Assembly (NCBI GenBank): GCA_035299385.1
Contig: DATGWQ010000268.1
Coordinates: forward strand, 3,279 to 67,278
Length of the DNA: 64,000 bases
Direction: 5' to 3'
Origin: Bacteroidales bacterium
Lineage (GTDB): Bacteria; Bacteroidota; Bacteroidia; Bacteroidales; VadinHA17
Every line of letters starts with the position of its first letter. Position 1 is the stretch's first letter. A model generated the notes under the pieces. That model saw only the letters and a list, made by a program, of their open reading frames with translations, did not search any database and was not told the origin of the DNA. A program made the position numbers and the translations under genes. This document shows positions 35,270 to 48,805 of this stretch, piece by piece.

Positions 35270-35394
35270 TTTTCTGGTACGGTATTTGTTTATTTTGTAT
35301 TAAAAAATATAGATTGCAAAAAAAAAGGTATCCAAATAAGACCGTAAAAATAAAAAAAGTTCTGTATTTTGTTAAAAAGAAAGGTAGGTTCACC

Positions 35395-36489
35395 ATGAAA
35401 GCCAGATTGTACTCAGTCATTTTGTTTTTCTTAATGATTGCCGGATCTCCGGCCGTCTCGCAGCCTGCCGGTATAGTGGTTAACAATTATTACAGCGTAA
35501 ATGATTACCACTTTGCATCCAGGATCAACAGGTTCCACCGATCCTACTCTGAATTCAGCTATTATTCTCCTGTCTTCACTGACGAGTACTGGTACAGCTA
35601 CAGGCCGTACAGCTGGGGTGTCAGCATCTACGGAGGAGGTGGATTCGGATACGGATTTTCTTACGGCTACCCGGTTAATTATGGCTACGCCGGCGGTTAC
35701 TATGATCCATACTTTGGATATTCCTACTACTGGGGTTATCAGCCTGTTTATTACAGCTGGATAACTCCGATTGTCAATTACGGAAGCTGGAACAATCATG
35801 GTTACCGGTACGGTGACAGAGGGTATTACAGCAACAGGAATGTATATAATGTCACAAACAATTATTACAATTCATCTCCTTCATATTCACGAAGGTATGT
35901 CGAATCAGGGACCAGCAGTGCTTCAAGAAGGGAATCTTCAGCTGCAGGCAGTAACAACAGCAGAATAAACATCAACAACGACGGGGGGAGAAATGCTGCA
36001 AACGGGAACGGGCGCTATACAGGCAGTCGCACCAATATAAGCCGCAGAAATGGGGGGAATAACGGGAATAACAGGAATAGTGCAAACACAGGAAATAGCA
36101 ACAACAGGAATAACGCAAACCATTATGGAAATGTTAACAATGATGGAAATACGCCTGCTGTGAATAATCCTGATAATAACCGTAACAACAATAACAGGAA
36201 TAACAATTATGATCCGGGAAAAAACAATAACCGCGGAAATAACAGTAGCAACCAGGGGAGCACACGGTCCGACAGAGCAGTAAGAAGCAATTCGACTGGG
36301 AGCAGTCCGGCCATCCAGTCAAAACCAGCCCCATCATCAGTTTCGAGGTCATCTTCTTCCCGGTCTTCAGCTTCATCTTCACCAGCAAAATCATCAACAA
36401 CATCAACAAAATCATCTTCAACATCAACAAAATCATCGTCAACGTCGCGGACAACTTCATCATCAGCCGGAACATCACGAAGAAAATAA
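35395..36489 (+). CDS. secreted low-complexity protein (Tyr/Gly-rich core, Asn-rich tract, Ser/Thr tail)
   Basis: ATG at 35395 gives the signal peptide MKARLYSVILFFLMIAGSPAVSQ. Tyr accounts for 14 of 38 residues in GYGFSYGYPVNYGYAGGYYDPYFGYSYYWGYQPVYYSW. An NNRNNNNRNNN tract follows, then STKSSSTSTKSSS repeats. Confidence 0.65.
   Translation: MKARLYSVILFFLMIAGSPAVSQPAGIVVNNYYSVNDYHFASRINRFHRSYSEFSYYSPVFTDEYWYSYRPYSWGVSIYGGGGFGYGFSYGYPVNYGYAGGYYDPYFGYSYYWGYQPVYYSWITPIVNYGSWNNHGYRYGDRGYYSNRNVYNVTNNYYNSSPSYSRRYVESGTSSASRRESSAAGSNNSRININNDGGRNAANGNGRYTGSRTNISRRNGGNNGNNRNSANTGNSNNRNNANHYGNVNNDGNTPAVNNPDNNRNNNNRNNNYDPGKNNNRGNNSSNQGSTRSDRAVRSNSTGSSPAIQSKPAPSSVSRSSSSRSSASSSPAKSSTTSTKSSSTSTKSSSTSRTTSSSAGTSRRK
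36388..36450 (+). repeat. three in-frame 21-nt tandem repeats inside the first low-complexity gene
   Basis: The units are AAATCATCAACAACATCAACA, AAATCATCTTCAACATCAACA and AAATCATCGTCAACGTCGCGG. They encode K-S-S-x-T-S-T units. Confidence 0.9.
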
Positions 36490-36568: not shown

Positions 36569-37993
36569 ATGAAAATGAAAAGATTATCTTACATATCGCT
36601 TGCTACTCTTCTCACTTTAGGCGCCTGCAATTCGCGCCTGTACACGGGAGTCGAGTACGATGATGTCTACTTCAGCTCCAAGGATCAGCCTGTAGCCAGG
36701 GTAGACAGGGGTGCCGCTGATCAGCAATATTCATCAGACAATTACTACGATAATATATATGCTGCAGATACTCTTGTATCAGAGGAGTATTCAAATGCTG
36801 TTGACCTGGACAACCAGGCAGCCAGTAATAACGGTTACGAATATTACGATGATTTCGGATATTCATATGCCGGAAGACTGAGAAGGTTCTACGGAAATTA
36901 TTTTGATCCTTACTGGAGAGATCCTTTCTACAGCTATGGTTATCCGTTCGGATATGGTATGGGATATCCGTACAGCTACGGTTTTGGATACCCGTACAGC
37001 TATTGGGATCCCTACTATGGATATGACTACTACAATCCATACTTCGGTTACGGTTACGGACCATCTTACGGTTTCGGATATGGTTATGGCATGTATTCGG
37101 GCTTCTACGGCGGCTGGGGTGGTTACTACGGCGGATATTACGGCGGTGGATGGCCTTATGGGGGCGGCTACGGAAGAATATACGACGACCGCAACAGCGT
37201 GGCTTATGGCAGGAGGGAAAGGCCGAGTACTCTTTCATCCAGGTGGAATTCCGGAACAGGCATAACCGGATCAGCAAGAAGAGACACCTACTCAGGCACA
37301 ACTTCCACTGCATCGAGAAGAACAGGAACTCCTTCTTCACCGGCATCTGCCAGCTCCAGGAGGGATAACGCTACTGTATCAGCAAGGCAGACAGACAGGA
37401 CACAGGTTGACAGGACCATTCAGAGCCAGTCAAAAGGTTCCGTAAATTCAACATCAAGAAGTGCATCTTCAAGGCCTGAATACAACAGCTCAGGCAGATC
37501 ATATACTCCAAGCTACAACAACCCGCGCATGCCCACACGTCCTTCCTATAATAACAGCAGGGCAGTTGAAAACTCAGGTGTGCGGTCGCGCGAAGACAAT
37601 AATCAGCCGGTAATGCGCAGCCCCTCGAGCCAGCCTTCAAACCAGGGGACTTACCAGGCTCCTTCGAGAAGGTCAGAATCGTCGTCCTCATACTCAGCTC
37701 CCGCAAGCCGCTCCAACACATACAGGAGCGTTGAACCCTCAAGAAGCTCCAGGTCTGCTGACGTATACAGGAGCCCGAGCTATTCTGCCCCGGCTTCAAG
37801 AAGCTATTCACCATCCAATAGCGGAAGCTCTTACTCAGGTGGGAGCAGCAGATCATACAGCAGCGGATCCTCCTATAGCGGTGGTTCAAGCAGTGGCGGA
37901 TCATCTTACAGCGGAGGCGGATCTTCGGGCAGCTCATCAGGTGGCTCATCAAGATCATCCTCGTCAGGCGGTTCTTCTTCAGGAAGGCGATAA
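36569..37993 (+). CDS. lipoprotein with Tyr/Gly/Pro-rich core and long Ser/Arg-rich tail
   Basis: Lipobox LLTLGAC. Core GYPFGYGMGYPYSYGFGYPYSYWDPYYGYDYYNPYFGYGYG...GGWGGYYGGYYGGGW. About 250 aa of S/R/P/T tail with a duplicated SYSAPASRS and GSSYSGGSS repeats. Confidence 0.65.
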   Translation: MKMKRLSYISLATLLTLGACNSRLYTGVEYDDVYFSSKDQPVARVDRGAADQQYSSDNYYDNIYAADTLVSEEYSNAVDLDNQAASNNGYEYYDDFGYSYAGRLRRFYGNYFDPYWRDPFYSYGYPFGYGMGYPYSYGFGYPYSYWDPYYGYDYYNPYFGYGYGPSYGFGYGYGMYSGFYGGWGGYYGGYYGGGWPYGGGYGRIYDDRNSVAYGRRERPSTLSSRWNSGTGITGSARRDTYSGTTSTASRRTGTPSSPASASSRRDNATVSARQTDRTQVDRTIQSQSKGSVNSTSRSASSRPEYNSSGRSYTPSYNNPRMPTRPSYNNSRAVENSGVRSREDNNQPVMRSPSSQPSNQGTYQAPSRRSESSSSYSAPASRSNTYRSVEPSRSSRSADVYRSPSYSAPASRSYSPSNSGSSYSGGSSRSYSSGSSYSGGSSSGGSSYSGGGSSGSSSGGSSRSSSSGGSSSGRR

Positions 37994-38042
37994 AGCTGTA
38001 ATATCCTCTGATTGAGGGAAATTCTAACAAAAAAATCAAATT

Positions 38043-39524
38043 ATGAAAAGGATCAGTTTCGTAATATTAACCTTCCTTTGTGCTTCCGCAGGCATATTCG
38101 CCCAGAATGTGGATGATGCACTGCGGTATTCACAGATATTTTACGGTGGCACTTCGAGGTTTACTTCCATGGGAGGTGCGTTCACTGCGATAGGAGGAGA
38201 TATCTCATCCCTCAGCCAGAACCCGGCAGGGCTGGGAGTATTCAGATCATCTGAAATAAGCATCAGCCCGCAACTATCCCATACAAAAACAGATGCCGGA
38301 TTTTTCGGAAGATCCTCCAACTACGTGTATAATTTTGGCCTTAACCAGGCAGGCATCGTCAGCAACCTCATCTCAAATGCAAGCGGCCTGATTTCTTTAA
38401 ATGCCGGTTATTCCTTCAATAAGACCAATAACCTGAACCAGTCCGTAAGAATACAGGGAATAAATACGGGAAGCTCAATGGCGGATTACTGGGCCCGCTC
38501 AAGCCAGGGCACACACTATAAAGACCTTCTTGACGCAGCCGGAATAGCATATGATGCCTGGGTGATTGACACAATAACAGGCTCGGGAGGCAGATCATAC
38601 GGCACGGTATTCAATAATTATGGTGACAACCCTCCTTCAGTCTACGGACAGAATGTTCGCAGGCTTATTACCGATGAGGGCTTTACCGGTGAACATGCTC
38701 TTTCGATAGGTGGAAACTATGAAAACAAAATATATTTCGGTGCGACACTTGGCATCAACAAAATAAAGTACACAGGCCATTTTGAACATCTCGAATCAAC
38801 AGATGCAGCGCTGCCTTCCGAATTTAAGAACTTTACATACACAGATCATTTTGAGAACAGCGGAACAGGTTATTCAATAAAGATCGGTGCCATATTCCGC
38901 CCGGTTGAAATGCTGCGACTGGGAATTGCATTCCATTCGCCGACCTGGTATAAGATCAATGAGTATTTCTATGAAGATATCTCCTCAAATTTCACAGGTG
39001 GAGGCAAATACAATTTCTCAGTAGACCCGCAAAGATACCAGTATGCCCTTGCAACTCCTTTCAGGGTCCTGGCGGGTGCAGCCGTTCAGATCGGTAAAAT
39101 GGGACTGCTGAGCGCTGATTACGAATTTGTCGATTACAGCACTGCAAGATTCTCCGAAACGGGAGACGGTTATGATTACAGCGAAAAGAACGACATTATT
39201 AAGAGTACTCTCAAGCCAGTTAATAATTTGAGGTTTGGAGGAGAGCTCAGGCTTGACAAGCTGTATCTGCGCGGTGGTTACGGATATTATGGCAAGGCAT
39301 TCCGCAGCGGTGAGGACAACCAGGATCTTCAGTATAACGCCATATCTGCGGGTATAGGTTTCCGTGAACAGAGGGTATCTGTTGATTTTGGCTTCACCAA
39401 CTTTAACTACAAACAGAAATACGTGCTTTATCCTCTCGATGTAAATGCCAGTTCCGGCATTGCAGGGCTTACTACCGACAGGAACATGTTTACCCTTACC
39501 GTAGGGTATAAGTTTGGTTATTGA
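38043..39524 (+). CDS. FadL/TodX/PorV-like outer-membrane beta-barrel protein
   Basis: 493 aa with a signal peptide. N-terminal hatch-like motif RFTSMGGAFTAIGGDISSLSQNPAGLG and C-terminal aromatic end YKFGY. Confidence 0.7.
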   Translation: MKRISFVILTFLCASAGIFAQNVDDALRYSQIFYGGTSRFTSMGGAFTAIGGDISSLSQNPAGLGVFRSSEISISPQLSHTKTDAGFFGRSSNYVYNFGLNQAGIVSNLISNASGLISLNAGYSFNKTNNLNQSVRIQGINTGSSMADYWARSSQGTHYKDLLDAAGIAYDAWVIDTITGSGGRSYGTVFNNYGDNPPSVYGQNVRRLITDEGFTGEHALSIGGNYENKIYFGATLGINKIKYTGHFEHLESTDAALPSEFKNFTYTDHFENSGTGYSIKIGAIFRPVEMLRLGIAFHSPTWYKINEYFYEDISSNFTGGGKYNFSVDPQRYQYALATPFRVLAGAAVQIGKMGLLSADYEFVDYSTARFSETGDGYDYSEKNDIIKSTLKPVNNLRFGGELRLDKLYLRGGYGYYGKAFRSGEDNQDLQYNAISAGIGFREQRVSVDFGFTNFNYKQKYVLYPLDVNASSGIAGLTTDRNMFTLTVGYKFGY

Positions 39525-39547
39525 TTTTTCTGAATATTGTTATAAAG

Positions 39548-39578
39548 TCCCCTTGCTGGTGCAGTGAGGGGATTTTTT
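39548..39578 (+). terminator. rho-independent terminator closing the 35395-39524 operon
   Basis: Stem TCCCCT (39548-39553) / AGGGGA (39567-39572) followed by TTTTTT (39573-39578). Confidence 0.7.
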
Positions 39579-40178
39579 CTACAAATATCCACCCGCTTCA
39601 GGTCCCATATTAAATATGAGATCTATTATGCTCAGGTTGGAAGTGAATTCATTTCCGAAAACCTGGAGATATCTTCTGTTTATGAACTCCTGACGTTTTT
39701 CAGGAGTGAGGCTGTATCGAAAGTCATTCGTCTGCCGGACTTCAGGAGCATATTCTGTTGTATTGCTGATCTCCCTTTCAATTTTCAGCATCCTTAACAC
39801 CTTCCTGAGCAATAAATCGTTAAGATCGAAAAGGCATTCATGCTTCCAGAGTATGATTTGTTCCAACTCCTCAAAGTAAAAATCAAAAAATGGTGAATTG
39901 CCGTAAGCCGCCCTGATTGCCCTCAGGTGGACCTGCTGCCATCTTTTAGAATAGTCAATGCGAACTTCACGTATGGGGACTTTTCTCCTGCTTCCTTCAT
40001 AGACCGGGACCGGGAGTAACAGCGGCCCGCCGGATGAAAGGATATAACAGCGGTTCCTGTAGGTCTGCTTGATATAATTCTCTTTGGCTTCAATCAGGAC
40101 TGCCCGGGAACTTTTTATTAATGAAAAATACTGGACCGGCGGCAGGTATGCTGTTGAAAGGAGTATTTTCTCCTGCAT
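39579..40178 (-). CDS. WbqC-like family protein
   Basis: 199 aa. The N-terminal pattern LSTAYLPPVQYF...ENYIKQTYRNRC is one I associate with the WbqC-like family. It starts 5 nt after the larB stop on the same strand. Confidence 0.7.
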   Translation of the reverse strand: MQEKILLSTAYLPPVQYFSLIKSSRAVLIEAKENYIKQTYRNRCYILSSGGPLLLPVPVYEGSRRKVPIREVRIDYSKRWQQVHLRAIRAAYGNSPFFDFYFEELEQIILWKHECLFDLNDLLLRKVLRMLKIEREISNTTEYAPEVRQTNDFRYSLTPEKRQEFINRRYLQVFGNEFTSNLSIIDLIFNMGPEAGGYL

Positions 40179-40183
40179 CTGGG

Positions 40184-40933
40184 TTATTTCATTTTATTGA
40201 TCATGCTTGCGCTGAAGCCTGCGCCAAAGCCGTTATCGATATTCACGACAGTCACGCCTGCAGAACAGCTGGTCAGCATGGCAAGCAAAGCTGAAATCCC
40301 TCCGAAATTTGCACCGTAACCAACGCTTGTCGGCACCGCAATCACAGGTTTGTCAACAAGGCCACCGACAACGCTTGCAAGGGCTCCTTCCATGCCTGCA
40401 ATAACAACAATTACCCTGCATTGCCTTATTTCGGCGAGCTTGTCAACGAGCCGGTGAATACCTGCAACTCCCGCATCATAGATCCTGAGAACGTTGTTGC
40501 CCAGCAGCTCTGCTGTTATCGCTGCTTCCTCTGCCACGGGCATGTCGGATGTGCCGGCAGTGATAACTGCAATTCTTGTTTCCGGGCAATCAGGCTTTTT
40601 CTTCTGGACAGCTATGATCCGTGCAACAGGGTAATATACAGCATCAGCTGCGATCTCTTTTACAGCTTCAAACATCGTGTTGTCTGCGCGTGTGCCGATC
40701 ACATTATTTTCCCTCGTGATCATCACCCGGAATATCTCCCTGACCTGCGCAACAGTTTTGCCTGCACAGTAAACAATTTCAGGGTAACCTGTACGAATCT
40801 CGCGATGGTGATCAATCTTGGCAAACCCAAGATCGCTGTACGGGAAATTCTTCAGTATTTCGAGTGCATCGTTTACGCTCCTTTTGCCGTCCCTGACATC
40901 TGACAGCAGTTTTTCAACTTCTTTGATATTCAT
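40184..40933 (-). CDS. larB: nickel-pincer cofactor biosynthesis protein LarB (NaAD carboxylase/hydrolase, PurE-like)
   Basis: 249 aa with FAKIDHHREIRTGYPEIVYCAGKT and a PurE-like C-terminal half ITAGTSDMPVAEEA...AGMEGALASVVGG. Confidence 0.88.
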   Translation of the reverse strand: MNIKEVEKLLSDVRDGKRSVNDALEILKNFPYSDLGFAKIDHHREIRTGYPEIVYCAGKTVAQVREIFRVMITRENNVIGTRADNTMFEAVKEIAADAVYYPVARIIAVQKKKPDCPETRIAVITAGTSDMPVAEEAAITAELLGNNVLRIYDAGVAGIHRLVDKLAEIRQCRVIVVIAGMEGALASVVGGLVDKPVIAVPTSVGYGANFGGISALLAMLTSCSAGVTVVNIDNGFGAGFSASMINKMK

Positions 40934-41733
40934 GAGTCGTGGTTTTGAGGGTTCAGGCTTCCTGTCCTGTAGCCTTCAAGGTCCAAAGATATATACCTGA
41001 ACCCTGATTTCTTCATTCCCGTGATTATCTGTTCCCTGATTTCCTTCTGCATTATTCTTTCCAGGTACCCGGGAGTGCATTCTATGCGTGCAACATCGCC
41101 ATGCATTCTGACCCTGGTGCCCGGGAATCCGAGCTCAAAGAACAGGTTCTCTGCAGCTTCGATCATCCTTAGCATTGATTCGCTTATGACCGTATTATAA
41201 GGTATCCTTGTAAGCAGGCAAGCCATAGCCGGGCGGTCCCAGGTGCTCAGACCAGCCTGTTTGCTGAACTGCCTTATTTCAGCTTTGGTTAGTCCCGCTT
41301 CCAGTAGTGGGCTTCGAATTCCAAGTTCATTGAGAGCTTTCAATCCAGGTCTGAACTCACCTGTGTCATCGGCGTTTGTTCCGTCAGCTACATACCTGAG
41401 GTTGTTCTTTTTTCCAAAATCAATGAGATCTGTAAACAAGTTCTTCTTGCACAGGTAACATCTTTGCGGGGGATTGTTCCTGATCATTTCAGGGAATTCG
41501 ATATCTATGATCGTATGCTTAATCCCGTGCCGGGAAGTGAATTCAACTGCATCTGATATCTCTCTCACAGGCGTATAAGCTGTTCTGATCGTAGCTGCGA
41601 TGACCTCGATCTTTTTAAGCGAATGTGCCCTTTGAAGCAGGAAAGTGCTGTCGACCCCGCCTGAAAACGCCAGGACAAATGAGCCAAGATCAGCCAGTAT
41701 CCTGTCCAGCCTTTTTGATTTTTCCTCTATCAT
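40930..41733 (-). CDS. larE: ATP-dependent sulfur transferase LarE (PP-loop)
   Basis: 267 aa with PP-loop AFSGGVDS and Cys residues at RCYLCK and MACLL. It overlaps larB by 4 nt. Confidence 0.88.
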   Translation of the reverse strand: MIEEKSKRLDRILADLGSFVLAFSGGVDSTFLLQRAHSLKKIEVIAATIRTAYTPVREISDAVEFTSRHGIKHTIIDIEFPEMIRNNPPQRCYLCKKNLFTDLIDFGKKNNLRYVADGTNADDTGEFRPGLKALNELGIRSPLLEAGLTKAEIRQFSKQAGLSTWDRPAMACLLTRIPYNTVISESMLRMIEAAENLFFELGFPGTRVRMHGDVARIECTPGYLERIMQKEIREQIITGMKKSGFRYISLDLEGYRTGSLNPQNHDS

Positions 41734-41736
41734 TCG

Positions 41737-42912
41737 TCAACCTTTTCCCGTTAACCGTGACATTATCCTGGAATACACCTCCTTGAGAGGTATCCCTTTT
41801 TCGTCGGCGATCCTTTTGCAATCGTCGTACTCGGGTTTAAATGATACCTCTTTCCCTTCATGGAACGATCTCTTGACACTCACCTTGCCAAATTCGGTTT
41901 CTATTGTTTCAAATTTCCTTTCAAGAGTATCCTTTTTGAAAACAAATGTCCTTATTCCAAGCGTGGTTGATTCAGAGAAGATTACCTTTTTCAATGCATC
42001 CGTCAAACCTGTTTCACATATTACTTTAAGCATGATGCCCGGCCTGCCTTTTTTCATGATGATGTTTGACAGAAAAACATCTGCAGCGCCTGCTGCAAAC
42101 AATCTCGAGGACAGGTGATCGAAAAATTCAGGGTTCATGTCATCGATGTTGCATTCGAGCATCACAGCATCATGCCCCTTATCGGCCTGTCCGGCAGGTT
42201 CACAGAGAAATACCCTGAGAAGATTCGGAATATCGGGATTCTGTTTCTGACCTACGCCATAGCCTGTCCTGATCACTTTCAGTTGACGGCCATTGCTGAA
42301 GTCCGTTCCAAGTGTTGCAACAATGGCAGCTCCTGTGGGCGTCGTTGCCTCAAAATTCACACCTCCCTGCCTCACAGGTAACCCGCTTATGATTTCCGCT
42401 GTTGCAGGGGCAGGCACTGGAAGTTTTCCATGCTCGCATTTCACGAAACCGCTTCCCAGTTCCACGAAAGGGACATACACTTCATCCACACCCAGCTCAT
42501 TGAAGCATATTGCCGCGCCAACAACATCGATAATAGAGTCAATGGCTCCAACTTCATGAAAATGGACTTGATCGACTGGAATACCATGGACCTTCGCTTC
42601 AGCTACTGCAATTTTGCTGAAAATCTTAAGGCTCAGCTCTTTAGTCCTGTCATCAAGGGATGATGAATTTACAATATTCTCAATATCAGACAGATGCCTG
42701 TGCGCGTGCTCATGCCTCGTCTGCTTCACAGTTACCTTTGTGCCGGAGATGCCATGCCTCTGGTCTCTTTCTGCTAACAGTTCCCATCCTTCCAGGTTAA
42801 GCTTGCCGAGTTCGCCTGTGAGCCAGGTTTTTTCGATTCCCAGGTCGATCATTGCACCCAGGTTCATATCTCCGCTGATCCCGGAAAAGCAGTCATAATG
42901 AAGTATTTTCAT
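41737..42912 (-). CDS. larC: nickel insertion protein LarC (P2TMN nickel chelatase)
   Basis: 391 aa, N-terminus MKILHYDCFSGISGDMNLGAMIDLG, single unfused-frame ORF. It ends 3 nt upstream of larE. Confidence 0.9.
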   Translation of the reverse strand: MKILHYDCFSGISGDMNLGAMIDLGIEKTWLTGELGKLNLEGWELLAERDQRHGISGTKVTVKQTRHEHAHRHLSDIENIVNSSSLDDRTKELSLKIFSKIAVAEAKVHGIPVDQVHFHEVGAIDSIIDVVGAAICFNELGVDEVYVPFVELGSGFVKCEHGKLPVPAPATAEIISGLPVRQGGVNFEATTPTGAAIVATLGTDFSNGRQLKVIRTGYGVGQKQNPDIPNLLRVFLCEPAGQADKGHDAVMLECNIDDMNPEFFDHLSSRLFAAGAADVFLSNIIMKKGRPGIMLKVICETGLTDALKKVIFSESTTLGIRTFVFKKDTLERKFETIETEFGKVSVKRSFHEGKEVSFKPEYDDCKRIADEKGIPLKEVYSRIMSRLTGKG

Positions 42913-43051
42913 GTCAATAGAAAAATTCAGATATCAATTTCGAACCGAGCCACGAAGATACTATTTACGATCCGATACTTAATAATAATAAAAAAAATCG
43001 TATTTTCGGCGCTTGTCCGGTCGTGGGTTAACACCTGAAAAATCACATAAA

Positions 43052-43972
43052 ATGAAAAGAAGAGATTTTCTTAAAACTTCACTCGGAGGCAGCATTGCAG
43101 CAGGAGCTGCATTGAAGCTGGGCGGTTACGGGAAAATGTGGAAATCAGAAGCAGCTTACGCCAAATATGATATGGTTGCTGTTATGGGGGGAAACCCTGA
43201 TGCCATGTTCGATCTTGGTATTCAGGAATTAGGCGGGATGGGAGCATTTGTGACGAAAGGCCAGAAAGTCCTCATAAAACCAAATATCGGGTGGGATGTG
43301 ATCCCGGAGCTCGCTTCCAATACCAATCCTGCCCTTGTAAAAAGAATTATCGAACATTGTTTCAAAGCAGGTGCCAAAGAGGTGTATGTCTTCGATCATA
43401 CCATCGATAACTGGATTAACTGCTACAAAAATTCCGGCATAGAGAAAGCAGCAAAAAGCGCCGGAGCTAAAGTTGTACCCGGCCATTCGGAAAATTATTA
43501 TCACGAAATATCCATCCCCGGAGGCGTACAGCTTCAGAAAGCAAAAGTGCATGAGCTTCTGCTCGAAACTGACGTATTCATCAATGTGCCGATTCTGAAA
43601 GATCATAATTCCACCAGGATGACCGCTTCCCTGAAGAATATGATGGGGGTTATCTGGGACAGGGGATACTGGCATTCGAACAACCTTGACCAGTGCATAG
43701 CCGATTATGCATTATACGAGAAAAAACCGGCGCTGAACATTATCGACTGTTATAATGTAAAGGTGAAGCATGGACCACAGGGTGTTTCAAAGGAAGACAA
43801 TGTACTTATGAAATCCCAGATAATCTCCACCGACTGGGTTGCCGCAGACACAGCCGCTGCAAGAATGCTCAAGGTCCCTGTAGAAAAAATAGGATATATT
43901 CCCATAGCTCATAAAATGGGCCTCGGAAACATGAATATAGACGGTCTGAATATTAAAAGGATAAAAATGTAG
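43052..43972 (+). CDS. Tat-exported DUF362-family protein
   Basis: The ATG at 43052 gives the twin-arginine signal MKRRDFLKTSLGGSIAAGAA. VLIKPNIGW and ILKDHNSTRMTASLKNMMG motifs match my recollection of DUF362. The track start at 43013 is TTG. Confidence 0.75.
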   Translation: MKRRDFLKTSLGGSIAAGAALKLGGYGKMWKSEAAYAKYDMVAVMGGNPDAMFDLGIQELGGMGAFVTKGQKVLIKPNIGWDVIPELASNTNPALVKRIIEHCFKAGAKEVYVFDHTIDNWINCYKNSGIEKAAKSAGAKVVPGHSENYYHEISIPGGVQLQKAKVHELLLETDVFINVPILKDHNSTRMTASLKNMMGVIWDRGYWHSNNLDQCIADYALYEKKPALNIIDCYNVKVKHGPQGVSKEDNVLMKSQIISTDWVAADTAAARMLKVPVEKIGYIPIAHKMGLGNMNIDGLNIKRIKM

Positions 43973-43976
43973 CCTG

Positions 43977-45542
43977 ATGAAATCACATCAGCTGAGGACT
44001 TTGCGTATCATCATCGCAGGATTATTTTTTATCAGTGTTTTCTTTGTTTTTGCTGATTTCAGATCATTAATCCCGGCAAAATATACTGAACTCCTTCTCT
44101 CGCTGCAGTTCATCCCTTCTGCACTGAAGTTTTTCAATGCAGGCACTCTCGTTGCAGGAGGATTCATAACCGTAATGGTCCTCACAGTCTTTACGGGACG
44201 TACTTACTGCTCCTTCCTTTGTCCGCTGGGGATCGGACAGGATATCTTCAGCCGGATCGGGGGCAAATTCCGCAGGAAATTCCGCCGGTACGGATACAAG
44301 CGGCCACATACGGTTCTGCGGTACATCATACTTGCCGCAACACTTGTGGTAACAATGGTATGGGGTATCTACATGCTTACGCTTCTTGATCCCTACAGTG
44401 TTTTCGGCAGGTTCATGACCTTTCTTGCAAAACCTGCTGTAATATGGATAAATAATATTTTTGCAGGGCTTCTTGGCAGATTCGACATCTATACACTCAG
44501 CCATACACCGGTGAAACCATTTGCACTGGTGATGTACACGCTGCCGGTTGCCTTTTTCCTCCTGGTAGGAGCGATGTCGCTGACAAAAGGAAGATTCTAC
44601 TGCAACACAATTTGTCCTGTCGGCACTTTTCTCGGACTGCTTTCCAAAGTATCGATCCTGAGGATTAAAATGAACGAGTCCGCATGCACAAGGTGCGGAC
44701 GCTGCTCGATGCGTTGCAAATCATCATGTATCGATTTTCTCAGGCACGATGTTGACGTTTCCAGGTGCGTGGGCTGCTTCAACTGTATCAATGAATGTCA
44801 CGAACATGCCATCTCGTATGGAATTGTGAACCTGAAGAAGAAAGATAAAGCCGGACACGTCACAGACGAAAGCAGGAGGAAAGCTATAGCAGGATCAATC
44901 CTGTTTCTGCTGGGAATACGACAGGCGGCTGCACAGGAAACGAAAGCGCCCAAGCCAAAAAAGCCGTCGACTGTAAAGGAAGAAAAAACTAATCCTGTCT
45001 GTCCACCTGGTAGCGGCTCCATTGCTGATCTGAATAAAAAATGCACCGCCTGTTCGCTTTGTATCAATGCCTGTCCGAACGGTGTGCTTCAACCGGCTTT
45101 TAAAGAATATGGGTATACAGGCCTGATGCAACCGGTAATGAATTACCATAAAAGCTTCTGTACTTACAAATGCAGTATCTGCACTGAAGTATGTCCCACT
45201 GATGCACTGAAGCCACTGGTGCTTGAAGCAAAACAGCTTACCCAGCTTGGGAAAGTGAAATTCATCAGGGACAACTGTGTTGTTAAGACTGAGAAGACTG
45301 CCTGCGGCGCCTGCTCAGAGAGCTGCCCGACCAAAGCTGTGTACATGGTTCCCTTTGAAGGCAACCTGCTGATCCCTGAGACAAACGACGAAATATGCAT
45401 AGGGTGCGGGCATTGTGAGTATGCATGTCCGATGGTGCCCTACAAGGCAATTTACGTTGACGGGAATGCCATACATACGGCTGCCAAAAAGCCCGAAAAC
45501 GAGAAAGCAGATATAGAGACTCCAGTCGATTTCCCATTCTAA
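43977..45542 (+). CDS. NapH/NosR/MauN-like integral-membrane polyferredoxin
   Basis: 521 aa with several TM helices carrying two CX3CP motifs (CSFLCP, CNTICP). It also has six CxxCxxCxxxC(P) cluster motifs, for example CTACSLCINACP and CIGCGHCEYACP. Confidence 0.8.
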   Translation: MKSHQLRTLRIIIAGLFFISVFFVFADFRSLIPAKYTELLLSLQFIPSALKFFNAGTLVAGGFITVMVLTVFTGRTYCSFLCPLGIGQDIFSRIGGKFRRKFRRYGYKRPHTVLRYIILAATLVVTMVWGIYMLTLLDPYSVFGRFMTFLAKPAVIWINNIFAGLLGRFDIYTLSHTPVKPFALVMYTLPVAFFLLVGAMSLTKGRFYCNTICPVGTFLGLLSKVSILRIKMNESACTRCGRCSMRCKSSCIDFLRHDVDVSRCVGCFNCINECHEHAISYGIVNLKKKDKAGHVTDESRRKAIAGSILFLLGIRQAAAQETKAPKPKKPSTVKEEKTNPVCPPGSGSIADLNKKCTACSLCINACPNGVLQPAFKEYGYTGLMQPVMNYHKSFCTYKCSICTEVCPTDALKPLVLEAKQLTQLGKVKFIRDNCVVKTEKTACGACSESCPTKAVYMVPFEGNLLIPETNDEICIGCGHCEYACPMVPYKAIYVDGNAIHTAAKKPENEKADIETPVDFPF

Positions 45543-45552
45543 ATCTTAACAA

Positions 45553-45969
45553 ATGAATCCAACTCACATTGAGCATATCGGAATAGCTGTAAGCGATCTT
45601 GATGCGGCGGTAAAACTCTACGAAAAGATCCTGGGCACAACATGTTACAATATCGAGGAGGTTGCCGATCAGAAGGTGAGAACCGCATTCTTCAGGGTAG
45701 GGGAGACCAAGATCGAACTTCTGCAGTCAACTGATCCTGAGGGCCCTATAGGTAAATTCATAGAGAAAAAAGGGGAAGGTATTCACCATATTGCTTTTGC
45801 AGTGAGGGACATTGAAAGCCAGCTCGTTGAAGCTTCGTCCAGGGATATCAGGCTCATCGATCTTACTCCAAGAAAGGGTGCAGAAGGCCTCGACATTGCA
45901 TTCCTTCATCCAAAATCCACCGGCGGTGTTCTTGTGGAGCTTTGCGAGAACAAAAAGGGAAATTCCTGA
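45553..45969 (+). CDS. mce: methylmalonyl-CoA epimerase (VOC/glyoxalase fold)
   Basis: 138 aa with IEHIGIAVSDLDAAVKLY...KIELLQ...GEGIHHIAFAV...GGVLVEL. Confidence 0.85.
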   Translation: MNPTHIEHIGIAVSDLDAAVKLYEKILGTTCYNIEEVADQKVRTAFFRVGETKIELLQSTDPEGPIGKFIEKKGEGIHHIAFAVRDIESQLVEASSRDIRLIDLTPRKGAEGLDIAFLHPKSTGGVLVELCENKKGNS

Positions 45970-45977
45970 AAAATCAT

Positions 45978-45985
45978 TAGATTTG
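45978..45985 (+). promoter_or_regulatory. -7 box TAGATTTG for citDE
   Basis: Perfect TAnnTTTG, 26 nt upstream of the ATG at 46011 and just after the mce stop. Confidence 0.45.
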
Positions 45986-46010
45986 TATCTGAACCAATCT
46001 GTTGCCGGTA

Positions 46011-47237
46011 ATGAACAGTCCTGTTGCAGTTGCAGGCAATTGCGGACCAAAGGTCAGATCAGATTGCGAGATGACTCTTGCGATCGAATCAGATGGAGGT
46101 ATATCGATAACACTTTCATCCAAAGTCGAGTCTCTTTATGGCAGTTCCATCAGGCAGCTTGCCAGTGAGACCCTGGATTTCTATGGCATAAAGCATGCAT
46201 CTGTCAGCATTATTGATTCCGGGGCACTTCCTTTTGTGATAAGTGCAAGGCTGGAAGCCGCTGTTAAAAAATTAACAGGAGACACCCGTGATTACCTCCC
46301 GGAATTCAGGAACAGGGACCTTCCTGCAAGCAAGAGGGAAAGAATGAGATTTTCCAGGCTCTATCTTCCCGGGAATACCCCATCTCTTATGATAAATGCA
46401 GGATTGCATTCAGCTGACGGCCTGATCCTCGATCTTGAGGATTCGGTTGCACCCGGAAAGAAAGACGAAGCCCGGGTTCTTGTGCGCAATGCATTGAGGC
46501 AGCTTGATTTTTATGGCGCTGAAAGGATGGTGCGAATAAACCAGGGTGAAACGGGCATAAAGGATCTTGAAGCGGTAATTCCGCAAAATATTAATCTTGT
46601 TGTCATTCCCAAATGCGAGAATGCAGGCCAGGTGCTGGATGTACGTTCTGTGATCAGTTCAGTTAAGAAAAAATCGGGGATAGAGGGTGAAGTGTTTCTC
46701 ATGCCCGTCATTGAAACAGCCATCGGGGTCGAAAATGCTTTCGGCATTTCAACCTCATCCCAGGATGTGGTTGCTGTTGCAATCGGACTTGAAGATTACA
46801 CAGCCGATCTGGGCGTGCAAAGGACCGCAGAAGGACTTGAATCATTTTACGCCAGGACCCGGATAATCAACGCCGCCAGGGCTGCGGGAATACAGCCTAT
46901 CGATTCCGTATTTTCCGATATCGGGGACCTTGATGCTTTGAAGAACAACGTGAAAATTTCCAAATCACTTGGTTTTGAGGGAATGGGTTGCATCCACCCC
47001 CGCCAGGTAGAAGTGATACGCCAGGGTTTTGCACCTTCAGCTGATGAAACGGAAAAAGCAAAAAAGATAATACTGGCTTTTGACGAAGCGGTCAGGTGCG
47101 GTTCAGGCGTCATTGCATTTGGTTCAAAAATGATCGATGCCCCGGTGGTCGCGCGTGCACACAGAACGGTTTCACAGGCTGTCAGCCTCGGTTTTCTTCC
47201 GGTAAACTGGAAGGAAGCAGAAGCAGGTTCTTTATAA
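46011..47237 (+). CDS. fused citrate lyase acyl-carrier protein (CitD) and citryl-CoA lyase beta subunit (CitE)
   Basis: The N-terminal ~95 aa (MNSPVAVAGNCGPKVRSDCEMTL...) align by eye to CitD (E. coli MKINQPAVAGTLESGDVMI). After a linker, RFSRLYLPGNTPSLM...LILDLEDSVAP matches the CitE/HpcH family. ATG at 46011 is preferred to the TTG at 46002. Confidence 0.8.
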   Translation: MNSPVAVAGNCGPKVRSDCEMTLAIESDGGISITLSSKVESLYGSSIRQLASETLDFYGIKHASVSIIDSGALPFVISARLEAAVKKLTGDTRDYLPEFRNRDLPASKRERMRFSRLYLPGNTPSLMINAGLHSADGLILDLEDSVAPGKKDEARVLVRNALRQLDFYGAERMVRINQGETGIKDLEAVIPQNINLVVIPKCENAGQVLDVRSVISSVKKKSGIEGEVFLMPVIETAIGVENAFGISTSSQDVVAVAIGLEDYTADLGVQRTAEGLESFYARTRIINAARAAGIQPIDSVFSDIGDLDALKNNVKISKSLGFEGMGCIHPRQVEVIRQGFAPSADETEKAKKIILAFDEAVRCGSGVIAFGSKMIDAPVVARAHRTVSQAVSLGFLPVNWKEAEAGSL

Positions 47238-47248
47238 AACATTAAGTT

Positions 47249-48805
47249 ATGTCGTCAGATACTGTGATTAATGCAGCCGGAAGGCATGTTCCGCTTCAAC
47301 TGAACGGGCAGCCTGCCGTGCCATTCAAGGGTGTGGGGATGCACAAACCCGCCGGGCTGAAACATGCTCCGCCTGTCCCTTCATGTTCTGATTACCCTGC
47401 CGACGGCAATAAGGTGGTAAGCAGCCTTGAAGAGGCTTTGAAATTATGCGGAATCAGGGACGGCATGACAATCTCGACGCATCATCATCTGAGGGATGGC
47501 GATCTTATAAGCAATAAGGTTTTCGAAATCGCCTCATCGATGGGCCTCAGGGATCTCGTCTGGTTTCCGTCAGCTTCATTCCCCTGCAATGACGTCGTAA
47601 TCAAATATCTTGAGGACGGGACAATTAACCGCATAGAGGGAAGCATGAACGGGCCGATCGGAAGATTTGTATCAGAAGGGAAGATGAAAGGCACCGCAGT
47701 TCTGAGGTCTCACGGCGGAAGGGTGCAGGCAATCCAGGACGGGGAATTGAAGATCGACATTGCAGTACTTGCTGCACCATGTGCTGATTCATTCGGAAAT
47801 GCCAGGGGTACAGGAGGAAAGTCAGCCTGCGGTGTTCTTGGATATGCCAAGGCCGATTCTATGTACGCCGACAAGGTGATCGTTGTAACTGATAACCTGG
47901 TCGACCTGCCGTGTTTTCCTATGGAAATTGAAGGGAATTATGTCGATTATGTGGTTGTTGTCGACAAAATAGGGCTCCCGGAAAAAATTGTTTCAGGCAC
48001 TACCGAGATAACAAAAAGTCCTGACCGGCTGCTTATTGCCAGGCTCACAGCCATGTTCCTCGAGAAGTCGGGCATTCTTAAGGATGGTGTAAGAATGCAG
48101 GCGGGTGCGGGTGGAATATCACTGGCAATTGCAGTATTTATCCAGGATATGCTCAGGGAAAAAGGCTGGAAATCGTCATTCGGTTTTGGCGGCAGCACAA
48201 AGTATATGGTCGGGATGCTGGAAGAGGGGTTGATGGGGTACATCCTCGATGCACAGGCATTCGACCTTGAGGCAGTGAGCTCTGTTGCAAGGAATGAAAA
48301 TCATGTGCCGTACCCGGTTTTCAATGCATACAATTATCATTCAAAGGGCAACCTCACCAGCATGATGGACATCATGATACTTGGTGCAACGGAGATCGAT
48401 CTCGATTTTAACGGGAATGTGGTCACTCATTCTGACGGGTACCTGCTGCACGGCATAGGCGGCTGGCAGAATTGCCTTCATGCACGGAATGTTATTGTCC
48501 CGCTTCCCTTATTCCGTGACCGGATACCAGTTATCGTCGACAGGGTGACAACACTCTGCGGACCTGGTGAAATGATCGATGTGGTGATCACAGAAAGAGG
48601 AATTGCGATCAATCCGCTCCGCACCGACCTTATCGAAAGCGTGAAAAGGAGCGGTTTGCCACTGAGGACTATCCGGGAGCTTAAGGATGAAGCTGAAAGG
48701 ATCTGCGGAAAGCCTGAAAAGCCGCGGCTCGAAGAAGATATTGTTGCAGCCGTGAAGTGGGTTGATGGAACCGTAATCGATGTGGTCAGGAGAATAAAGA
48801 AGTGA
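47249..48805 (+). CDS. citF: citrate lyase alpha subunit (citrate CoA-transferase)
   Basis: 518 aa with the HHHLRDGD motif and the size and architecture of CitF. It starts 11 nt after citDE. Confidence 0.85.

Follow-up and report, generated by a model that had tools for sequence, protein, structure and literature searches.

A DUF362 protein with a twin-arginine signal encoded beside nickel-pincer biosynthesis genes is a candidate for a quinone-linked enzyme

The genes for the synthesis of the nickel-pincer nucleotide (NPN), larC, larE and larB, lie in a Bacteroidales genome next to a gene encoding a DUF362 protein that is related in fold to LarA and bears a family-conserved twin-arginine signal, and this gene is followed by the gene of a polyferredoxin. 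With lar genes beside a putatively exported relative of LarA and its iron-sulfur membrane partner, the pair can be put forward as a testable candidate for a nickel-pincer enzyme of a new kind, linked to the respiratory chain. We favour, at roughly even chances, the reading that DUF362 is loaded with the nickel-pincer cofactor, exported by Tat, and acts with the polyferredoxin as a dehydrogenase or reductase connected to menaquinone.

Gene organization and the NPN biosynthesis genes

The window, i.e. the whole stretch of DNA that was analysed, comprises 64 kb of a 149,296-bp contig that belongs to an incomplete Bacteroidales MAG. On the minus strand larC (41737-42912), larE (40930-41733), larB (40184-40933) and a WbqC-family gene (39579-40178; PF08889, E 3e-39) follow one another with a gap of 3 nt, an overlap of 4 nt and a gap of 5 nt, and on the plus strand the DUF362 gene (43052-43972; 306 aa) is separated by 4 nt from the polyferredoxin gene (43977-45542); this layout and its spacings are those given in a preliminary description of the region. 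The DUF362 reading frame starts at the ATG at 43052, a start shared with homologues of 306 aa, and NCBI names the two divergent products as DUF362 (HLP74255.1) and LarC (HLP74254.1). The 139 nt between them (42913-43051) presumably hold promoters or an operator; two blocks of this region, AATATACTATTTACRATC and AAAAAAAATYGTATTTTCGG, are conserved among relatives, and an Rfam search of it gave no match.

In profile searches the three lar products exceeded the cut-offs of their equivalog models. LarB scored 297 bits with NF033503 (cut-off 175), LarE 298 bits with TIGR00268 (cut-off 150), and LarC 217 bits with TIGR00299 and 146 bits with NF052512, both above the cut-offs, as well as 491 bits with PF01969; the LarC1 and LarC2 models are both matched, fused in a single protein. 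LarB is a NaAD carboxylase/hydrolase, LarE an ATP-dependent sulfur transferase, and LarC a CTP-dependent nickel-inserting cyclometallase. The larE product contains a CxxC pair and the counterpart of the sacrificial cysteine, which makes the [4Fe-4S] type probable; variants of this type have been described (PMC11796402). It has also been reported that larBCE occur without larA in about 15% of genomes, and further NPN users are therefore expected (PMC11796402).

The claim that the 64 kb contain no LarA is correct in the strict sense: when the L. plantarum protein (its sequence validated against PDB 5HUQ) was used as query against the window in phmmer and tblastn, the best E value was 0.74, and Pfam scans of the 30 window proteins revealed no Lar_N, LarA_C, aldo-keto reductase or ornithine cyclodeaminase domain. 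The claim has to be qualified in that the DUF362 protein itself appears to belong to the LarA superfamily.

The DUF362 protein and its relation to LarA

The protein matches PF04015 with 156.5 bits (cut-off 24), and its AlphaFold model has a pLDDT of 93.9, with low values for residues 11-40. The preliminary description had proposed to compare the 43052-43972 product structurally with LarA, and this comparison pointed to the LarA family only: the 19 Foldseek matches in the PDB at E ≤ 1e-3 are all LarA-family structures, with probability 1.0, TM-scores of at most 0.53 and 250-284 aligned columns. The Pfam DUF362 model matches residues 82-245 of true LarA (E ~1e-5; 26 bits, above its own threshold of 24 bits). 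DUF362 and the LarA N-terminal domain are both placed in Pfam clan CL0471, and work in the LarA field has set DUF362 outside the family, using it as an outgroup (PMC11770544). An HMM of the Tat-DUF362 subfamily built in this work gave ~0 bits against LarA, and the Pfam scan of the protein showed no match to Lar_N or LarA_C. Judging from the model and the profiles, the protein is best described as a distant, truncated and exported member of the LarA superfamily, and not as an unrelated fold.

The preliminary description had considered the motifs ILKDH and SLKNMMG as possible cofactor tethers. They fall in a candidate cofactor-binding segment, residues 174-208 (43571-43675, plus strand), with the sequence DVFINVPILKDH185...SLK195NMMG...WH208. 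The His-x9-Lys-x12-His motif formed by H185, K195 and H208 is invariant in 165 of 165 orthologues. The placement of its first two residues relative to LarA comes from weak profile-profile alignment, given that three hhalign runs coincided in setting H185 on LarA H174 and K195 on LarA K184 with non-significant E values of 0.14-0.32. No firm alignment equates His208 with LarA His200.

In LarA, the LarA_C domain helps to form the active site and supplies substrate-binding residues. DUF362 is devoid of this domain, an observation that counts against our main reading. This, together with the constant pairing with the polyferredoxin, could suit a protein that binds NPN or a precursor and is non-catalytic, i.e. 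a carrier, a storage protein, or a maturation factor for the polyferredoxin or another exported enzyme. We consider such a role improbable, given that K76, N78, T91, D115, Y125, N178, K183, R204, D232 and D266 are also strictly conserved, a set of polar residues that looks like an active site, and that no conserved acceptor enzyme was found nearby.

The putative Tat signal peptide spans approximately residues 1-38 (43052-43165, plus strand) and includes RRDFLK, a hydrophobic region and A-Y-A before Lys39. Although the N-terminus MKRRDFLK scores 16.3 with the Pfam TAT_signal model, below its threshold of 22.7, the proposal that it is a twin-arginine signal is borne out by conservation: among the 161 orthologues with a covered N-terminus, 160-161 keep R3, R4 and F6, and these residues are at least 90% conserved among 64 representatives at 32-50% identity. 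A Tat motif throughout a family in which no cofactor motif can be recognised fits the loading of a cofactor in the cytoplasm.

The polyferredoxin and the conservation of the neighbourhood

The N-terminal part of the polyferredoxin matches NapH/MauN and the C-terminal part NapG/NapF, with NCBIfam NapH/NapG scores below the equivalog cut-offs. Along the protein there are four transmembrane helices, two CX3CP motifs (after TM2 and TM4), two [4Fe-4S] motifs, a Tat motif with a fifth transmembrane segment (TMD5), and four further [4Fe-4S] motifs. The two CX3CP motifs were described before; the six CxxCxxCxxxC(P) motifs described with them are reached only if two variants (CxxxCxxCxxxCP and CxxCxxxCP) are added to the four canonical CxxCxxCxxxC motifs. 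The internal Tat motif, S-R300-R301-K, with TMD5 and a Lys-rich stretch after it (44871-44936, plus strand), was recognised by conservation and hydropathy: R301 is at least 95% conserved in 73 homologues, with a consensus resembling [ST][RK]RxF[ILV], and TMD5 is weakly hydrophobic, its KD hydropathy remaining below the threshold of 1.6 that TM1-4 pass. The label NapH/NosR-like falls short of this architecture: as read from its sequence, the protein fuses NapH to NapG and carries a conserved twin-arginine motif in its interior. In the predicted topology the first two [4Fe-4S] motifs should be cytoplasmic and the last four periplasmic. Dual Sec/Tat targeting of this class of polytopic polyferredoxin has been shown experimentally for a protein of the delta proteobacterium MLMS-1 (eLife 2017, PMC5449189), and with a Tat-exported DUF362, both this protein and the four-cluster domain should reside in the periplasm.

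In 68 of 69 informative loci the DUF362 gene lies next to that of the polyferredoxin. Such a constant pairing would imply net electron transfer, not the internal, self-cancelling redox of racemisation by LarA. In the clade of the window, lar genes adjoin the pair in 24 of 24 informative loci, and they are also found beside it in L047, L075 and L152. When the loci were searched starting from LarC, the pair was within 6 kb in all six from Bacteroidales, with differing outer flanks. In a Competibacteraceae locus (L035), the genes for DUF362, the polyferredoxin, LarC, LarE and LarB lie on one strand with a gap of 6 nt before larC, and L073 has a similar arrangement. The adjacency thus occurs in two different gene orders and two phyla, and with the LarA-family fold and the invariant residues it lends partial, computational support to the earlier proposal of a Tat-exported candidate NPN enzyme that the polyferredoxin connects to the membrane. 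Against this proposal, the surroundings of orthologues below 62% identity are mostly devoid of lar genes: of their 45 informative loci, 41 have none within ~10 kb. These orthologues, from Ignavibacteriota, Prolixibacteraceae, Desulfobacterales, Chitinophagaceae and other groups, keep the His/Lys/His motif unchanged.

These distant loci fit a periplasmic quinone-linked redox module that works without NPN, in which the His/Lys/His site binds another ligand or metal, the lar genes are neighbours by inherited synteny, and NPN serves an enzyme encoded elsewhere, e.g. a LarA homologue, an NphT-like aldo-keto reductase or an ornithine cyclodeaminase. There is room for such users, since the window covers only part of its contig and of an incomplete MAG; the residue-level alignment with LarA, as mentioned above, is not significant; and three syntenic Bacteroidales loci (L034, L044 and L054) keep the WbqC gene facing DUF362 but have no lar genes in the space between. 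It may be that the Bacteroidales loci all inherited one arrangement, and in that case only about two independent events are left. Nevertheless, the lar genes do disperse around genomes, as indicated by the absence of larE from several lar-DUF362 clusters (L162, L169 and the P0437 locus), and the Bacteroidales core persists despite its changing flanks. In addition, inherited synteny does not readily account for the co-directional Competibacteraceae cluster, NPN enzymes are the only structural matches of the fold, and a Tat signal without another cofactor motif would need explaining. We therefore hold this alternative to be possible but rather unlikely.

The WbqC gene, which shares the strand of larB and begins 5 nt beyond it, is present in the same 24 of 24 loci of the window's clade, and its product, co-transcribed with larB, might be the NPN user or a cofactor modifier, DUF362 being unrelated to NPN. 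This is very improbable: the gene is missing from three lar-DUF362 clusters (L164, L165 and the Competibacteraceae locus), it stands beside DUF362 without lar genes in the three syntenic loci just mentioned and occurs without them in L093 too, and elsewhere members of the family accompany DegT aminotransferases in polysaccharide loci (PMC10434189). Structure gives no support either, as the single-sequence AlphaFold model has a pLDDT of only 36.6 and no match was found among PDB sequences. WbqC was discarded as a consistently linked component, and it is probably an inherited syntenic neighbour, not an obligate part of the system.

Proposed function and comparison with known systems

Under the main reading, LarB, LarE and LarC would make NPN in the cytoplasm, where it would be installed in the neighbouring DUF362 protein, with Lys195 and/or His208 as candidate ligands. 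The protein would then cross the membrane folded and loaded by the Tat pathway, which in this proposal is the reason for its twin-arginine signal, and would dock in the periplasm on the NapG-like domain with four [4Fe-4S] motifs, itself translocated by Tat by means of TMD5 and the internal RR motif. This electron wire would reach the menaquinone pool by way of the four-helix module resembling NapH and its two cytoplasmic-side clusters. DUF362 might abstract hydride from, or deliver it to, a periplasmic substrate; the analogy with LarA and NphT points to secondary alcohols, 2-hydroxy acids or sugars. LarA gives the hydride back, and DUF362 would not; two electrons would enter the iron-sulfur chain, and the result would be a net oxidation or reduction coupled to quinone. 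We know of no NPN enzyme that is exported or that passes electrons to iron-sulfur clusters, and this counts against the proposal.

NphT, a hydride transferase that depends on NPN and belongs to the aldo-keto reductase superfamily, was discovered as an NPN user through its adjacency to lar genes (Nat Chem 2026, PMC13524815). That study, deliberately restricted to proteins without LarA homology, does not mention DUF362 in its main text; it took a conserved His/Lys motif as an indicator of NPN binding, and DUF362 has such a motif. In contrast to the DUF362 protein, NphT is a cytoplasmic TIM barrel without an iron-sulfur partner (PMC13524815).

With the LarA superfamily (Lar_N/DUF2088 plus LarA_C; PDB 5HUQ, 2YJG, 9EID, 6D6Z and 9Q3J) the DUF362 protein has in common the fold class, the Pfam clan, a conserved His...Lys pair at the place of His174/Lys184 according to the weak alignment, and a gene adjoining larBCE. 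It differs from LarA in size (~265 aa for the mature protein versus ~420 aa), in its lack of Lar_N and LarA_C matches, in the Tat signal that should direct it to the periplasm, and in its polyferredoxin partner.

The polyferredoxin shares with the MLMS-1 protein and with NapGH the four-helix NapH module, two CX3CP motifs and two cytoplasmic [4Fe-4S] motifs (PMC5449189). As in the MLMS-1 protein, for which dual Sec/Tat targeting was established by experiment and not, as here, predicted from sequence, a twin-arginine motif precedes TMD5, which is weakly hydrophobic and has positive charges after it, and the C-terminal NapG-like domain has four cluster motifs (PMC5449189). The partner in the present case is the DUF362 protein, whereas NapGH serves a nitrate or nitrous-oxide reductase system.

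Gene organization around the lar operon

The region under study belongs to a 149 kb contig of a Bacteroidales MAG. On the minus strand, larC (41737-42912), larE (40930-41733) and larB (40184-40933) are followed by a gene of the WbqC family (39579-40178; Pfam PF08889), with a 3-nt gap between larC and larE, a 4-nt overlap between larE and larB, and a 5-nt gap between larB and the WbqC-family gene. A divergent intergenic region of 139 nt (42913-43051) lies between larC and a plus-strand gene that encodes a DUF362 protein (Pfam PF04015; 43052-43972) of 306 residues including its predicted signal peptide, and 4 nt after this gene starts the one encoding a polyferredoxin of 521 residues (43977-45542, plus strand). 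Gene order, orientation and spacing in the ORF map agree exactly with those claimed in the preliminary description. The identities that it gave to the three enzymes of nickel-pincer nucleotide (NPN) biosynthesis are also borne out, given that all of them exceed the cut-offs of the NCBIfam equivalog HMMs: LarB scores 297 bits (cut-off 175), LarE 298 bits (cut-off 150), and the LarC1 and LarC2 models give 217 and 146 bits (cut-offs 90 and 50). The LarE of the window carries a CxxC pair (RCYLCK) and a Cys matching the sacrificial cysteine (AMACLL), which suggests from these residues that it is of the catalytic [4Fe-4S] type and not of the single-turnover type of L. plantarum.

Two blocks of the intergenic region, AATATACTATTTACRATC and AAAAAAAATYGTATTTTCGG, are kept among relatives and may represent a shared operator or Bacteroidetes-type promoters. 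Neither a riboswitch nor any other Rfam family was detected across 38000-47000, which includes this region, and the scans for sigma-70 promoters and terminators gave background levels only.

The WbqC assignment is clear (135.5 bits against a gathering score of 21.3), and its linkage to the lar and DUF362 genes is not consistent: the gene is not in the lar-DUF362 clusters of the comparison loci L164, L165 and L035, and L034, L044, L054 and L093 have it beside DUF362 but contain no adjoining lar genes. A single-sequence AlphaFold model of this protein was unusable (pLDDT 36.6), no PDB sequence matched it, and the literature searched gave nothing informative on it. At lower coordinates than the WbqC-family gene, next to a FadL/TodX-like outer-membrane protein (38043-39524), there are two long ORFs (35314-36489 and 36569-37993) with a high content of Tyr, Gly, Ser and Asn, with signal-peptide- or lipoprotein-like N-termini and with no Pfam match; relatives keep both ORFs upstream of the outer-membrane protein and WbqC. 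On the other side, the polyferredoxin gene is succeeded after 10 nt by a gene for methylmalonyl-CoA epimerase, and then come a CitD-CitE fusion and CitF (45553-48805), with no CitC, CitG or CitX nearby; in some relatives methylmalonyl-CoA decarboxylase-like genes are located between the epimerase and CitDE. The epimerase and citrate lyase genes were rejected as parts of the system, because their position after the polyferredoxin is confined to the clade of the window, i.e. the loci whose DUF362 protein is at least 62% identical to that of the window.

The DUF362 protein and its relation to LarA

The DUF362 protein matches PF04015 with 156.5 bits (gathering score 24) over the whole 200-position profile. 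Its family is very large, with more than 6,800 matches to the protein, the best 120 at 80-91% identity, a range that spans many Bacteroidales MAGs and denotes an unusually high conservation; at the 50% cluster level there are 327 representatives with E ≤ 1e-30. The AlphaFold model obtained with an alignment of 64 diverse representatives has a pLDDT of 93.9. The preliminary description had proposed comparing this product with LarA, the nickel-dependent lactate racemase, at the level of structures and of the DUF2088 profile. A Foldseek search of the PDB returned 19 matches with E ≤ 1e-3, every one of the LarA family (including 6C1W, 5HUQ, 9EIA, 9Q3J, 4NAR, 2YJG, 7S91 and 6D6Z), with probability 1.0, TM-scores of 0.31-0.53 over 250-284 columns and about 12% identity; according to the model, then, the fold of the protein is of the LarA type. 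The Lar_N profile (PF09861), which true LarA matches with about 250 bits, found nothing in the DUF362 protein even when E ≤ 10 was allowed, nor did LarA_C (PF21113), and the protein has 306 residues compared with about 420 in LarA.

The relationship is visible from the opposite direction, since the Pfam DUF362 HMM matches residues 82-245 of bona fide LarA with E of about 1e-5, above its own gathering threshold. Three true LarA proteins of the comparison set (P0275-P0277) score about 26 bits against the threshold of 24, and for this reason they bear a precomputed DUF362 annotation. DUF362 and DUF2088 are placed in the same Pfam clan, CL0471, and DUF362 served as an outgroup in work on LarA (PMC11770544). 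An HMM built from the Tat-motif DUF362 subfamily gives LarA scores of about 0 bits, and sequence searches of the PDB with the DUF362 protein and with its profile returned no match.

These results bear on the claim that the lar operon has no LarA. With the L. plantarum sequence as query, validated against PDB 5HUQ, LarA was not found in the window by phmmer or tblastn (best E 0.74), and it was also not found in the approximately 9 kb past the 3' end of the window; in 30 proteins of the window that were scanned, Pfam detected neither Lar_N nor LarA_C, nor any domain of aldo-keto reductases or ornithine cyclodeaminases. The claim holds in the strict sense only, because the fold and the Pfam evidence tie DUF362 to the LarA superfamily: what lies beside the lar operon is a remote member of this superfamily, shorter than LarA and lacking LarA_C.

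In LarA, Lys184 is the NPN tether, His200 is a nickel ligand, and His108 and His174 are catalytic. Among 165 DUF362 orthologues H185, K195 and H208 are invariant, and K76, N78, T91, D115, Y125, N178, K183, R204, D232 and D266 are each kept in 164-165 of them; the motifs ILKDH and SLKNMMG, flagged early on as possible cofactor tethers, contain H185 and K195, respectively. The hhalign comparison had three variants, with a single LarA, with 24 close LarAs, or with a set enlarged by LarA of Tt and Ip as transcribed from alignments in the PDB; the LarA homologues retrieved with LarA as query were all at least 77% identical, a low diversity for profile building. In the three runs DVFINVPILKDH185...K195 was placed on DLLISEGFIESH174...K184 of LarA, with E of 0.14-0.32, not significant in any of them, and His200 and His108 received no assigned partner. 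Given these E-values, the equivalence of H185 with H174 and of K195 with K184 is only suggestive.

The protein matches NCBIfam NF052623, the cyanobacterial "Npun_F2552 family" (E 3.7e-16), which means that DUF362-like proteins also occur in cyanobacteria; these organisms have been reported as NPN makers without LarA (PMC11796402), and the literature searched held nothing on Npun_F2552. Gut metagenomes contain fusions of DUF362 domains with dockerins and with carbohydrate-binding modules of the CBM9 type (PMC5742341), and these fusions point to extracellular, carbohydrate-associated roles for other DUF362 branches.

Predicted export and the polyferredoxin

The N-terminus of the DUF362 protein shows the motif KRRDFLK, whose R3, R4 and F6 are kept in 160-161 of 161 orthologues, followed by a hydrophobic region and an AxA cleavage site. 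The Tat signal that had been read from this sequence is sustained by the near-universal motif, but its score with the Pfam TAT_signal model (16.3) is below the threshold of 22.7. We predict from these features that the protein is a periplasmic Tat substrate. No cofactor motif of its own was found in it, and the combination fits with the loading of a cofactor in the cytoplasm before export.

The polyferredoxin has transmembrane helices at residues 8-26, 55-73, 117-135 and 182-200, with loop charges that obey the positive-inside rule. CX3CP motifs are present at 78 and 209, after the second and fourth helices, CxxCxxCxxxC motifs at 237 and 264 would bind two [4Fe-4S] clusters on the cytoplasmic side of the predicted topology, and the C-terminal part holds four further Cys cluster motifs. 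An internal twin-arginine motif, SRRK, occurs in residues 299-320 (44871-44936, plus strand); its consensus is of the [ST][RK]RxF type, and R301 is conserved in at least 95% of 73 homologues. The fifth transmembrane segment (TMD5), which comes after the motif, is weakly hydrophobic, below the hydropathy threshold, and is followed by a KPKKP stretch. In the NapH-NapG fusion class the joint Sec and Tat insertion of the MLMS-1 protein, whose NapG-like domain is periplasmic, was shown experimentally, and the criteria for dual targeting come from the same study (PMC5449189). On the basis of the internal twin-arginine motif, TMD5 and the lysines, we assign the polyferredoxin to this dual Sec/Tat class as a putative NapH-NapG fusion; it falls below the NCBIfam equivalog cut-offs for NapH proper (86-94 bits, cut-offs 213-234) and NapG proper (42-44 bits, cut-offs 179-269). 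From the Tat motif of the DUF362 protein and the fit of the polyferredoxin to the class of MLMS-1, we predict for both the DUF362 protein and the four-cluster domain a periplasmic location and a link to the quinone pool.

Distribution of the gene pair and its possible role

Of 160 DUF362-anchored loci collected from genomes and metagenomes, 69 were informative by their flanking sequence, and in 68 of these the polyferredoxin follows DUF362. Each of the 24 informative loci of the window's clade has adjacent lar genes, and so do just 4 of the 45 more distant ones (below 62% identity); L047, L075 and L152, which did not reach the flank criterion, show the adjacency as well. A search seeded with LarC gave six loci in Bacteroidales, and in all six both genes of the pair lie no more than 6 kb away (five directly divergent, one with a 5-kb insertion between them), with differing outer flanks and with LarE sometimes missing from the cluster; at two Clostridia LarC loci DUF362 was not found. 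A second arrangement occurs in Competibacteraceae (Gammaproteobacteria): in L035 DUF362, polyferredoxin, LarC, LarE and LarB all run in one direction, a gap of 6 nt preceding larC, and in L073 LarC comes directly after the polyferredoxin. This last locus belongs to a single Competibacteraceae MAG; here the two genes of the pair are separated by an inserted gene for a Uma2-family endonuclease (L073:7876-8475), and behind larC there is a gene of the FGE-sulfatase family. A metagenome scan seeded with the Competibacteraceae DUF362 gave no additional co-directional clusters. The lar genes have thus been linked to the pair formed by DUF362 and the polyferredoxin through about two independent arrangements.

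We consider that the best explanation, to which we give about even chances, is an exported, NPN-loaded DUF362 protein wired to menaquinone by the polyferredoxin. The DUF362 protein would be a Tat-exported member of the LarA superfamily that carries NPN, and it would exchange electrons with menaquinone via the dual Sec/Tat NapHG-type polyferredoxin. The proposal of the preliminary description that DUF362 is a candidate NPN-dependent redox enzyme is supported in part: it is favored by the fold, the invariant residues and the lar adjacency, and it is weakened by the non-significant hhalign result and by the distant loci, most of which have no lar gene within about 10 kb. According to the main rival, which we regard as less likely, the pair has no need of NPN and the lar adjacency is inherited synteny; most orthologues outside the Bacteroidales and Competibacteraceae lineages, with no lar gene within about 10 kb and an identical motif, speak for it. 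Nine loci without lar genes (L030, L039, L040, L042, L043, L058, L061, L065 and L071), from Ignavibacteriota, Melioribacter and others, have divergently upstream of DUF362 a gene for a multi-pass membrane protein of about 170 residues with no Pfam match (e.g. L043:9385-9939, minus strand).

About 15% of genomes have larBCE and no larA (PMC11796402). NphT, an NPN user other than LarA, was discovered in 2026 through its adjacency to lar genes, in a study focused on proteins without LarA homology whose main text does not include DUF362 (PMC13524815). A report of 2025 describes an ornithine cyclodeaminase that works with NPAD, a related nickel-pincer cofactor, and no paper linking DUF362 to NPN was found in the literature searched. 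If the Tat-exported DUF362 proteins are a branch of nickel-pincer enzymes, part of the genomes with larBCE and no larA would be accounted for, and the proposal may extend to cyanobacteria, via the DUF362-like Npun_F2552 family, and to those DUF362 domains that are joined with modules of the ferredoxin, CBM9 or dockerin kind. It can be tested with the existing LarBCE co-expression system and a mass shift of +450 Da. Its confirmation would give a DUF family of several thousand proteins a function and would bring the chemistry of the nickel-pincer cofactor into respiration, as net redox catalysis.

It is reportedly an explicit statement of the field that many genomes make the nickel-pincer cofactor without a known user; a predicted exported LarA-like protein beside larBCE in two phyla, with its iron-sulfur wire, is a concrete candidate. 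To our knowledge, the known nickel-pincer enzymes are all cytoplasmic, i.e. the LarA racemases and epimerases, the hydride shuttle NphT, and the ornithine cyclodeaminase with its related cofactor, and we know of none that hands electrons to an external electron-transfer chain. It is possible, and we propose it tentatively, at somewhat under even chances, that the Tat-exported DUF362 proteins constitute a second large nickel-pincer branch, the first outside the cytoplasm, and the first respiratory NPN dehydrogenases or reductases, which would feed the electrons of the abstracted hydride into an iron-sulfur wire and into the pool of quinones.
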